IMG/VR virus record: IMGVR_UViG_2923307698_000004
Direction: 5' to 3' (one strand)
Source: a virus
Lineage: Duplodnaviria > Heunggongvirae > Uroviricota > Caudoviricetes
Length of the DNA: 57,073 bases
Position numbers: made by a program. Positions 9,001-15,000 of this stretch are shown in pieces. Numbering within the stretch: position 1 is the first letter of the stretch; each line of letters starts with the position of its first letter.

Positions 9001-12000
9001 AGCATTCAAACAGTTATATATTAAAGCTGTCCACATCGGATATGTGACACTAATAGTATCAATGGATTGATATTATTAATGGATATAAACATGTAATAAG
9101 GATTTATTATGAACATTCAACCGACCATACAATCTGGAATCACCTCACAAAACAATCAACATCATCAAACAGAACAAATACCCTCTACACAAATACCGCA
9201 ATCCGAATTACCTCTAGGATGCCAAGCTGGATTTGTTGTTAATATTCCAGATGATATACAGCAACATGCACCGGAATGCGGTGAAACAACAGCTCTACTG
9301 AGCTTGATAAAAGATAAAGGTCTGCTCTCAGGGCTAGACGAATATATAGCTCCTCACCTTGAAGAAGGATCCATAGGAAAAAAAACATTGGATATGTTTG
9401 GTTTATTCAATGTTACCCAAATGGCATTAGAGATACCTAGTTCCGTTTCAGGCATCTCTGGTAAATATGGTGTCCAGCTAAACATTGTAAAACCAGATAT
9501 TCATCCTACATCAGGTAATTATTTTTTACAGATATTCCCTCTGCATGATGAAATAGGTTTTAATTTTAAAGACCTTCCTGGCCCGTTAAAAAATGCATTA
9601 AGCAACAGTAATATATCAACCACTGCAGTGTCGACTATTGCATCGACTGGAACATCAGCCACTACTTCGACGGTAACCACCGAGCCAAAAGACCCAATAC
9701 CATGGTTTGGATTAACAGCTCAAGTGGTTCGTAATCATGGTGTAGAACTTCCTATAGTCAAAACTGAAAATGGATGGAAGCTTGTTGGAGAAACACCACT
9801 TACTCCTGATGGGCCGAAAGCAAATTACACGGAGGAGTGGGTTATCAGACCGGGAGAAGCAGATTTTAAATATGGTGCATCTCCATTACAGGCAACTCTA
9901 GGGCTGGAGTTTGGCGCACATTTCAAGTGGGATTTAGATAACCCTAATACTAAATATGCCGTTCTTACCAATGCTGCCGCAAATGCGCTTGGTGCTTTAG
10001 GGGGATTTGCAGTATCCAGATTTGCTAGTACAGATCCAATGTTAAGTCCTCATATCGGTGCAATGGTTGGGCAAGCAGCAGGGCATGCCATACAGTATAA
10101 TACCCCTGGATTAAAGCCAGACACTATTTTATGGTGGGCTGGTGCGACACTGGGGGCTGCCGATTTAAACAAGGCCGAGTTTGAAGTAGCTAGATTCACT
10201 GACTATCCTCGTATATGGTGGCACGCAAGAGAAGGAGCTATTTTCCCCAATAAAGCAGATATTGAACATGCCACAGGTGCTGATATACGCGCAATGGAAG
10301 AAGGTATCCCTGTTGGACAGCGGCATCCAAATCCAGAGGATGTGGTAATCGATATCGAAAGCAATGGCTTACCACATCATAATCCATCAAATCATGTTGA
10401 TATCTTTGATATAATCCAAGAAACAAGAGTCTAAGCTTTAACTTGTTTATTTTAAAATAATAGCTGAAATGGATGGCAGCTATTATTAATAAGGATTAAT
10501 ATATTTTTTTCTAAAATACCCCACAAAATAAACACATCATAAAAATTCTAAATACACACCTAATCTCAAAAAAAACAAACTTACTATTTGACTTGGATTA
10601 TGTTTTTAATCCAATATTTTCCGACAACATCTCCACAGAAAAATGCATTTACATAAAGACGCCTTCAAGTCATCTGAAACCTGCCAACCACAGACACCTT
10701 CTTATATTCTGGATGTCTGCGGCGTTTTTTTACAAATTACTGACAGCCAATACTCTCTCAGAGAAAAATATTTTAACTATCTTTTATAATGAAGTTTCCC
10801 TTGATAGGATCATAAACACATTTATCAGGACTTATAATCATTGATGCCGTTATTGGTTCTCGGGTCAGTGGATGATATGAGCCTTCACTAGCTAAACGAG
10901 AAAATGCATCAAAATCAAATAAGCAGCATACTGCCGAACTATCTGAATTTTTGACAAACACTCCTTCTTCGGGTCTCTCTAGTGTAATTGGACACTGAAT
11001 AGACTCTGGCGGGCACTGGAAATTTCCTGAACTAACAGGAAACTTACATTGAGATATTTTGTCCTGAATACTCTCTTGCGATTGTGCTTCACCTGAGTCC
11101 GAAAGCATACTGAGCATCCTATCGCGAAGAGCTTCAGGGCCGTTATTAAACCCATAAAGGAATAACTCAGTAAGCAATCCCCCACTACTGCCGCTGGATA
11201 GAAAACGCCCATCGGTTTCATTAAATACAATGCTGACAGTCTCATTACCTAATGTAAACTCCCCTCGACCGCTAGATGCTACTTGAGCTCGAAGGACATT
11301 CAATCCATTAAAAATGAGCTTGATCTAATCTCCGAATTTAACGGCATTATAAAACTCCCTATTTTAATTTAAACTCCAGACTTAAATAGCTTTAACAAAC
11401 ATCTGCCTTACATGACAACAAAAACCGGAGCCGGACTCCGGTTTTGTGAAGCTGTCGGGTTACTTCATCCCGCCAATATTTTCCCACCTCCCGTCAGCAC
11501 GCAGGATTTGCAGCGGTCTTACCACACACTGTATCTGCTTTTTATCCGCATCCAGTATCACCACCTGCGTGATTACCCTGTCCTGCTCCGGGATAATGCC
11601 ATTCTCATCTGACTCCAGAATGTCTGCCGGTCCCAGTCGCAGCTGTGCTGTAAGTAACTCCCCGTCTTCACGGTCATCATGCTTTCCGCAACCGCACAGA
11701 CGCTGCATAATTTTTTTTAATATGTTCATGTCATTCTCCTGTTCTGCCTGTATCACTGCCCACTTCATCCAGCCCCTTAACATGTAGTGGTCAAGTAATA
11801 TTGGCCACGGTTTTACAGTAAAAATGGTATCTGTTCTCTGACTCTTCCGGCGTCAGCCCACCGTTATAATGGTGAGGTCTGACGCTGTTGTAGTAGTTCA
11901 ATATGTAATCATTAATTTGCTGCCGGGCCTCGTCCTTGCCTGCGTAACCATTCGTTGGCACCCATTCTGTTTTCAGACTGCGGAAGAAGCGTTCCATGGG

Positions 12001-15000
12001 GCTGTTATCCCAGCAGTTTCCCCGCCGACTGACGCTTTGATTTATTCTGCAACGCCAGAGAAGTTGTTGATATTTAAGGCCTGTATACTGGCTTCCCTGG
12101 TCGCTATGGAACACGACATCCCGGGGTTGGCCACGCGTCTCATAGGCCATCCGCAGGGCACTGCTTATCAGTGCGGTATCGGCATGCGCTGACAGACTCC
12201 AGCCGATAACCCTGCGGGCAAAAAGATCCATAACAACCGCCAGATAGCACCAGCGATTTCCTGCCCAGAGATACGTAATATCTCCACACCATACCCGGTC
12301 TGGCTCCGGTACTGCGAACTGACGCTCAAGCAGATTCGGCAGGCTGGTATGCTCCTGACGGGCATTTTTATACTGATGTTTTCCGGGCTGACAACTGCTC
12401 AGGTTCAGATATTTCATCAGACGTCCGGCACGGTAACGGCTCATCGGGACGCCGTTTTGAGTCAGCATTTCAGCCAGAGTGCGCGCGCCCGCAGAGCCCC
12501 GACTTTGGTTCCACGCCCGGCGTATTTCGCTGCACAACCTGACTCGTGCCGGATTAACCGTATCGCGTCGTTTTCGCCAGTACCGGTAACTGCTGCGGTG
12601 TATTTCCAGAGCAGAACACAGGCTGACAACCGTGTGGCTGTCACTTAGTCTGGCGGCTATCGTGAACCGTTCAGCGAGTCGGACATTAAGAGCGCGGTAG
12701 CCTTTTTTAATATCGTATTTTGTTCCTCCAGACGGCGAACTTGCTTTTCCAGCTCGCGGATACGTTGCTGGTCTGGAGTAATGGGTGTGGCAGAGGGCGT
12801 AATACCCTGGCGCTCTCGCCTGAGCTGGCGTACCCAGCTCTCAAGCGTGGTTGAACCGACATTCATCGCTTCACTGGCCTGTCGATATGAGTAGCCCTTA
12901 TCAACAATCAGCTGTGCACATTCCAGCCTGAACTCAGGGGTGAAGGTTCGTTTGGTTTTCTTGTTCATTAAGTCACCTGTTTTGTGTTGTGGTGAGAATA
13001 TCACCTTTCATCAGGTGGCCAAATTTAGTGTGCCACTACAACATCCTGCCACGGCCCGTCACCAAACCTGACCTGCAAATGCTGAAAAAAACCCTGAACC
13101 CGTGTGGCATCTTTGGGGGCAAGAAAGGTCAGTCCGGTGATGAGTGCGCCATCTGTATCCGGGAACCAGCCATTGCTGTTTGTCTCAATAATGTTTCCCG
13201 GCCCCAGACGAAAACGGATTTGTGTCTCCCCCGGATCGCCCTTCGGTCCCTGAGGTCCGGTTGCCCCCACCGGGCCAGCCGCACCTGTTTCTCCTTTCGG
13301 TCCCTGTGGGCCTGCCGGGCCTGCCGCACCGGTATCTCCCTTTGGACCCTGTGGACCTGCATTTCCCGTCAGACCGGTCTCTCCCCGCTCTCCCCTGTCA
13401 CCTTTCGGCCCCTGCGGGCCTGCCGGACCAGCATCACCTGCCGGTCCCCGTTCGCCGGTTGCCCCGACAGGGCCGGTGTCACCGCGCTCTCCCTTATCAC
13501 CCTTCGGCCCCTGAGGACCCGCGGGCCCCTGTTCCCCCTTTGGCCCGGGAGGTCCCACCACGGTGGGGATTCTGTTTACGGCTTCTTCCGCCGCTATCCT
13601 GCTTTGTTCCGCTGACTGTGCGCTTTCTGCTGACTCCCGGGCTTTTTCTGTTGCGGTCGTTGCATCCCTGGCTGCATTACCGGCTGCACTTTCTGCCGTC
13701 TTTCTTGACAATTCAGCTTCTGCTGCACTTTGTGATGACTCACTGGCTTTTTGAGCGGCCGCAGAAGCCGAGGACGAGGACGCATCCTCTGACTGCTTTG
13801 CTGAGGCTGCACTTTCTGCCGCCTGCCGGGCTGACTCCGATGCCTCCCCTGCTGAAGTGTCAGCATTTGCAGCGCTCTCTTCTGCCTGACTGGCTGATAT
13901 GCCGGCATTCCTCGCTGACGTCTCCGCCTCTCCGGCATTCTTCTTCGCCTCCTCAGCGTGACGCGCCGCTTCTTCCACCATCAGTTCAAAACGACGCAGT
14001 GCCTCCGGCCGGACGTCATCCTCCGACATGGCACCGAGAAAATCATTCAGCGTCCCCGGTTGAGAATCTTCATACACGGTGATGGTCCCGGCATGTGACG
14101 GAGGAAATCCCTCCACCAACAGAATGACGCTGTACTGACCGTACTCAACATCCATGCTGTAACGTCCGGCTTCATCCGGATTTTCAGAGGCCACCGTGTT
14201 CACCACCACCGTGCTGCTGGTTCGTCTGGCCTTCAGCACAATGGTGCAGTTCTGTACTGGTTTTCCTGTGCCATCTTTAAGCACGCCAGAAATTTTTACT
14301 GTCATACTTTTCCACCAATAAAAAAAGCCCGCAGCAGTGACGCCACGGGCTTCAGGACAGTGTAACTTTACGTTTCCTCAAACGCAGTTCACCCCATAAG
14401 GTGGATGAACCTGCGTATCATAACAATATTTACAGAAGATAAATCGGCGTCTGTTGTCAGAAACGGTATCCGATACCAACAATAAATGCATCCGATCGCC
14501 AGTCGCCACTACCGGAACCTTCATAAGCAAGGTCAATGGTCACGGATTCGGTCGGGTTAAACTGCACGCCAGCCCCCCACGCCAGAGACGTGTTGCTGTG
14601 GCGACCGTCATCACTTCCGGTCAGCACATCGTGCGTTTTCCCCTTGTTGTCAGTTACGCGGAGATAATCCCCGGAGAAAGTCGACACACGGCTGTAAGCC
14701 ACACCCGCCATCGCATACGCGCTGAACCATTCATTCACGCGTACAGACGGCCCCGCCATCACGCTGAACCAGCGGTTACGCACGGAATCTTCATGCCAGC
14801 GGGTATCGCTGTAGCGCGTTTTTTGCTCATCCTCAGCATTGGCATAACTGAAGGACGTAATCAGCCCCAGCGCGTCCATAAACTCATAACGGTATTTCAC
14901 GTTAATCCCGTTCAGATCATCACTACCGGGAACGTTCGTCGAGGCATGGAGATACCCCGCGCTCAGCGTGGACTGATGTTCTGCTGCACTCGCTGGCGTA

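Follow-up and report, generated by a model that had tools for sequence, protein, structure and literature searches.

An IS911-like insertion sequence at the 3' end of the side tail fibre gene of a lambdoid prophage

The 57,073-nt stretch of viral DNA analyzed here, IMG/VR record IMGVR_UViG_2923307698_000004 (Caudoviricetes; hereafter the window), contains a tail fibre gene whose reading frame ends inside a complete insertion sequence (IS) of the IS3 family. The IS lies at 11783-13040 on the minus strand, is 1,258 bp long, and is present in the window as a single copy. The interrupted open reading frame (ORF), at 13025-14305 and also on the minus strand, encodes 426 amino acids and follows J (15124-18597) and lom (14457-15056) in the gene order. 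Besides a C-terminal Phage_fiber_C domain, its product carries the Pfam families phage_tail_N (PF08400, 1e-68) and Collagen. Given this position and an Stf-like N terminus, "side tail fibre" is a fair label for the target gene.

The element has the sequence features expected of the IS3 family, beginning with a length inside the family's range of approximately 1.2 to 1.55 kb. The termini are of the TG...CA type (TGTAGTGG...CCACTACA) and form 26-nt imperfect inverted repeats that are complementary at 20 of 26 positions (77%). The right repeat (IRR) occupies 11783-11808 (TGTAGTGGTCAAGTAATATTGGCCAC), and the left repeat (IRL), at the end nearest the transposase start, occupies 13015-13040 (GTGGCCAAATTTAGTGTGCCACTACA, or 5'-TGTAGTGGCACACTAAATTTGGCCAC when read on the minus strand). 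An ACA triplet, TGT on the coding strand, adjoins each end at 11780-11782 and 13041-13043; empty alleles have this triplet only once, consistent with the 3- to 4-bp target duplications of the family. Within these borders, orfA (12657-12968, minus strand) encodes a 103-residue helix-turn-helix protein (Pfam HTH_Tnp_1, 9e-13) whose exact sequence is present on at least 1,000 contigs. The orfB frame (11791-12711) overlaps orfA, and the overlap contains the slippery heptamer A AAA AAG (12702-12708, minus strand) of a programmed -1 frameshift. A -1 slip at the heptamer leaves an OrfAB fusion open for 392 amino acids (11791-12968, minus strand), the two-ORF layout of IS3-family elements. This fusion scores 360.6 bits against NCBIfam NF033516 (transpos_IS3, IS3 family transposase; cut-off, 160), and it includes a Pfam rve match (3.3e-27), the retroviral-integrase-like DDE domain of the family. 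The NCBI annotation pipeline (PGAP) calls identical copies a single transposase with a "programmed frameshift."

The start of orfA also attracted a match of another kind. The Rfam model isrC (RF01387), described as a Salmonella island "Hfq-binding sRNA," aligns with 12850-12972 on the minus strand over its full 123 nt (150 bits, E = 4e-38) and coincides with the orfA start of the 1,258-bp IS. The paper that originally described isrC placed it between envF and msgA and made no tie to an IS or a transposase (PMC2330248). At least in this IS, the match is the 5' part of orfA from the start codon onward and not a separate small RNA gene. A leader hairpin between IRL and the start of orfA, which could have hidden the orfA ribosome-binding site when transcripts read through, was rejected when the fold proved no better than that of shuffled sequences (z = 0.11).

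Copies of the element elsewhere define its ends independently. In a megablast of the 1,258-bp sequence against 5,426 complete Escherichia coli genomes, 2,415 contained a match, and in 937 records the best match was at least 99% identical. The median genome had 2 matching places, and the maximum was 17. Many matches of 100% identity span exactly positions 1 to 1258 while lying beside unrelated genes (melB, ypjA/ehaD, and a phage gene for head-tail joining among them), and two identical copies that we inspected have target duplications of their own (GGG|IS|GGG and GCT|IS|GCT). Because perfect matches stop at 1 and 1258 in such unrelated contexts, neither the borders nor the 3-bp duplication depends on reading the repeats by eye. 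The original prediction, made from the window sequence alone, had placed the IS at 11783-13040 between ACA triplets, and the identical copies end exactly there; the alternative ends that would have abolished the duplication are not borne out by the full-length copies. Intact ORFs and ends, together with identical copies at many loci, suggest that the element is capable of transposition, presumably by copy-out and paste-in via a circle.

At the fibre gene, the junction can be read codon by codon. The occupied ORF comprises 422 native residues followed by VVAH from IRL, so that its end reads ...W Q D V|V V A H *, and its stop codon (TAA, 13027-13025) lies inside the IS. Codon 422 (GTT, Val) straddles the junction and is unaltered. 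The prediction that the fibre ORF ends within the element was therefore correct, but the IS contributes four complete codons, the stop, and the third position of the Val422 codon that the insertion splits, not five codons and a stop. Joining the flanks recovers the displaced native 3' end at 11731-11779 (minus strand), which consists of the T completing Val422, 15 codons (KGLDEVGSDTGRTGE), and TGA. The joined frame is indeed longer, at 437 residues compared with 426 in the occupied allele, although the gain is 15 codons plus TGA instead of the roughly 19 codons first estimated. In exchange for VVAH, the occupied allele has lost the last 15 native residues, and its match to Pfam Phage_fiber_C falls from positions 1 to 64 of 64 (123 bits) to positions 1 to 60 of 64 (114.8 bits). 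The restored stop (11733-11731) was expected to overlap the start of a small downstream ORF; it does lie next to that start, but one base (C, 11730) separates TGA from ATG (11729-11727).

Uninterrupted alleles of this gene are common. We reconstructed the empty site by deleting 11783-13043, that is, the IS and one ACA, to give ...GGCAGGATGTTAAGGGG... In 696 of the 5,426 genomes, a 600-bp piece of this reconstruction has a match that covers 80% or more of its length. Genomes that carry the fibre module have a median of 11 copies of it, and among the matches listed the top ones are single uninterrupted pieces with identities of up to 99.8%. Annotated IS-free alleles consist of a 1,314-nt fibre gene (437 amino acids), one base, and a 270-nt ORF named "phage tail fiber C-terminal domain-containing protein," which bears out the expectation that the homologue runs past the insertion point. 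Of the IS-free relatives found, strain F2_407_2_2 is the closest: once the IS is taken out of the window, the two sequences align at 99.3% identity in a single 17.3-kb block that spans the site. Identity rises to 99.73% over the 3 kb centred on the site, and the restored fibre protein differs from that of F2_407_2_2 at one residue (V113A).

The occupied junction, by comparison, was found nowhere else. It was not found in the 5,426 complete genomes, in 50,697 phage records (none of the 297 records matching the fibre stretch carries the IS), or in IMG/VR, GTDB representative genomes, and JGI metagenome contigs, and the 426-residue product had no exact match among approximately 15 billion proteins. 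The sole apparent full-coverage match in a complete genome, from strain Z1323HEC0393, was rejected as a different site in a paralogous fibre gene. In that strain (NZ_CP148357.1; copy at 1893-3150 of the extracted region), a 100%-identical IS sits in the fibre gene of another prophage, about 240 bp upstream of the site occupied in the window. It is oriented to the gene as in the window, has a GGG duplication, and is an independent insertion into the same gene module. Identity of the IS to many copies, a perfect duplication, and a junction absent from all of the collections searched make the insertion in the window look recent and strain specific. Both adjectives of the original description, a "simple" and "recent" insertion, thus hold up: the single 17.3-kb colinear block speaks for the first, and the identical copies, perfect duplication, and unique junction speak for the second.

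The fibre module has relatives outside the long-tailed phages. The last 150 bp of the gene before the insertion (13041-13190) match, at 100% identity, the tail fibre gene in Shiga toxin (Stx) phages such as AU5Stx1 and ArgO145. The AU5Stx1 counterpart, at 2501-2651 of the extracted region, is annotated as tfpS, "Tail fibre of Podoviral Stx phages," which are short tailed. The distal fibre module is thus common to podoviral Stx phages and lambdoid prophages of the long-tailed type.

Across the IS, the 89-residue ORF at 11460-11729 (minus strand) likewise matches Pfam Phage_fiber_C (PF06820, 1e-36), and it also matches PHROG 576 ("tail fiber protein"). With the C-terminal domain of the fibre it shares 34% identity, and in phage AU5Stx1 it is called an "alternate tail fiber tip." The ORF retains its ATG and a GGAG ribosome-binding site, but its distance from the fibre stop has grown by 1.26 kb. 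A consensus scan found no terminator-like site on the minus strand within the IS, so antiterminated late transcripts would probably read through the element. The same scan found no outward promoter-like site at the right end; IRR has an outward-facing TTGACC with no usable -10 sequence in the flank. Any polar effect on the 89-residue ORF would be presumptive.

The prophage carries a second intact IS3-family element, of the IS1203/IS629 family, at 41403-42712. This element is 1,310 bp long, has 25-nt inverted repeats, orfA (108 amino acids), and orfB (296 amino acids), and is flanked by a 3-bp CAT duplication (41400-41402 and 42713-42715). It splits the gene for antiterminator Q after codon 36, leaving fragments at 40818-41402 and 42716-42820. 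The 194-residue ORF at 40818-41402 covers only positions 34 to 217 of the 220 in Pfam Phage_antiter_Q, and the first 35 codons are found beyond the IS at 42820-42716; the restored Q protein has 229 residues. The possibility that this IS had inserted exactly at the start codon of the 194-residue ORF was therefore rejected, as Pfam and PHROG coverage showed a Q protein without its N-terminal 35 or so codons, which lie across the element. Many genomes match the reconstruction of the empty Q site at 100% identity over 400 bp, and the occupied Q/IS junction was found in none of the 5,426 complete E. coli genomes. With Q split, the late genes, including that for the fibre, are unlikely to be activated by the prophage's own Q, and a prophage with both a divided Q and a disrupted fibre is probably unable to complete a lytic cycle.

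Genes for type III secretion system effectors lie to the left of the fibre module. The nleA gene (9109-10434, plus strand) is an intact ORF of 441 codons in the window and is annotated as frameshifted in F2_407_2_2, otherwise the closest complete genome; no Pfam model matched it. Just downstream of the fibre module, an NleG-family gene (10773-11400, minus strand) is frameshifted near its N terminus, with MPLNSEIRSSSFLMD* in one frame and a 176-residue ORF with Pfam T3SS_NleG in the other, and PGAP flags the F2_407_2_2 counterpart as frameshifted too. Farther left, at approximately 880-8450, colinearity with the annotated relative indicates espM1, nleG, nleF, and nleH1-2, interspersed with degraded pseudogenes of IS630-family, IS256-family, and tyrosine-recombinase types. 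This segment is an effector "exchangeable locus" littered with the remains of old ISs, whereas the two elements described above are intact and recent.

Taken together, these observations are best explained, at a probability of about 95%, by one transposition event in which an intact IS3-family element entered a fibre gene of the lambda Stf type at codon 422/423, within a lambdoid prophage that has type III secretion effector genes. The IS is oriented like the fibre gene, and the target TGT is duplicated. By analogy with established results for IS911 and IS3, OrfAB would have been produced by a -1 frameshift at A AAA AAG and would have excised an IS copy as a circle (copy-out); the circle would then have integrated at a staggered 3-bp cut (paste-in). 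The fibre may have lost its function as a result. Two observations temper the expectation of such a loss or of silencing of the displaced ORF: the truncated fibre still has 60 of the 64 Phage_fiber_C positions, and late transcripts that meet no terminator-like site in the IS may continue into the 89-residue ORF. As Q is also split by an IS, the fibre insertion is most simply a second, probably neutral hit in a decaying prophage, and neutral decay of an already crippled prophage is its most likely meaning. The event is an IS insertion of an already known, routine kind, and it implies no new biology.

The small loss from the C-terminal domain might also be taken to mean that the fibre normally ends at or before the site, so that the IS is merely intergenic and disrupts no gene. 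IS-free alleles in 696 genomes run through the site to 437 residues, the intact protein covers the domain completely, and the restored sequence is one amino acid from a real allele, all of which leave this idea with virtually no probability. No more credible is a rearrangement junction, formed by recombination between IS copies or by an adjacent deletion, at which the flanks are not native neighbours. IS3-family elements, and IEE in E. coli strains that make Shiga toxin (STEC), are reported to yield deletions beside IS copies (PMC9397093); here the 3-bp repeat is perfect, IS-free genomes have the two flanks joined directly and complete, and a single 17.3-kb alignment spans the site. An assembler could have misplaced a repeated IS into the fibre gene, given that the element is multicopy in many genomes and that none of the other sequences searched has the junction. 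Assembler error is not expected to leave a precise 3-bp duplication at the exact ends of the IS, the same prophage bears another, independent IS with an equally clean signature, and a unique junction is also what a recent event would produce. We therefore regard an artefact as very improbable.

A different kind of alternative accepts the insertion and gives it a purpose, either as a reversible switch excisable by IEE or as a step of domestication that immobilizes the effector-carrying prophage, with the fibre module as a preferred target. This idea gains some substance from strain Z1323HEC0393, where an identical, co-oriented IS with a separate GGG duplication lies in a paralogous fibre gene, and from the finding that IEE promotes excision of IS3-family elements in STEC (PMC9397093). 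Among the genomes searched, however, there are approximately 7,000 copies of the fibre module and approximately 6,000 places matching the IS, numbers at which a second insertion is expected by chance, and the two targets (TGT and GGG) share no motif. A selected or regulatory role is accordingly very unlikely in our judgment. The narrower proposal, that two independent co-oriented insertions within about 240 bp mark the 3' module of the fibre as a preferred or selected target of this IS, is given an equally small chance. If it were true, insertions in iee-positive enterohaemorrhagic E. coli (EHEC) could be reversible on and off states of the fibre tip, or could fix prophages that carry effectors in the chromosome. 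In STEC, IS3-family elements are documented to have amplified and to undergo excision promoted by IEE (PMC9397093), and an IEE-type reversal of the insertion seen here is conceivable.

Reading the locus as a single recent transposition has practical consequences. Annotation of the 426-residue fibre ORF should mark it as a pseudogene disrupted by an IS, or at a minimum as a C-terminally altered allele, and the 1,258-bp element should be treated as one mobile element with a frameshifted transposase. Unique junctions such as this one could serve as strain-specific typing markers. The probable block to the lytic cycle also bears on the mobility of the nleA, nleG, nleH, and nleF cargo.

Among known elements, the IS in the window resembles IS911, the mechanistic paradigm of the IS3 family, in its orfA/orfB layout, its -1 frameshift at A AAA AAG, its TG...CA ends, and its 3-bp target duplication. 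Compared with the ends of IS911B from K-12, IRL matches at 35 of 40 positions and IRR at 28 of 40. In contrast, nucleotide identity in orfB is only about 66%, and amino acid identity to the K-12 IS911A and IS911B fragments is 45 to 69%; no more than the first 80 nt reach 81%. By the ISfinder convention, isoforms share roughly >90% of nucleotides and >95% of amino acids, and an assignment as an isoform of IS911 was rejected on these figures. "IS911-like," as the element was first called, is thus a fair description of its organization, its frameshift heptamer, and its IRL, but the element is not IS911 itself, and ISEc31 is closer. Copies labeled "IS3-like element ISEc31 family" by PGAP have the same 1,258-bp length and organization and align over the full length at 92.5 to 92.9% nucleotide identity, and a protein named "ISEc31 family" is 94% identical to the transposase over 301 residues. 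These copies are not identical to the element in the window, whose exact transposase variant (WP_085968792.1) PGAP names only "IS3 family transposase." In this comparison with PGAP-labeled family copies, values of about 93% in nucleotides and 94% in amino acids are borderline, such that the element could be an isoform of ISEc31 or an IS in its own right. From its sequence, then, the element is best called IS911-like with ISEc31 as its closest named relative, and we leave its ISfinder name at "closest to ISEc31."

The fibre gene and the prophage can be placed in the same way. As in lambda, where Stf is encoded by orf-401 and orf-314, the fibre lies after J and lom, and its first 160 residues are 74% identical to orf-401, the N-terminal part of Stf. 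Unlike lambda Stf, the protein shows no similarity beyond residue 160 or so, where a collagen-like repeat and Phage_fiber_C make up its distal part, and it is followed by the 89-residue Phage_fiber_C ORF instead of lambda tfa, so that the resemblance to lambda does not extend to the distal fibre or to Tfa. The insertion itself has its nearest parallel in the IS629/IS1203 insertions of EHEC prophages, one of which, in the Q gene of this same prophage, is an event of the same kind with a 3-bp duplication. The two elements differ in that the one in Q belongs to another IS3 subgroup and is 1,310 bp long, and their transposases share 26% of their amino acids.

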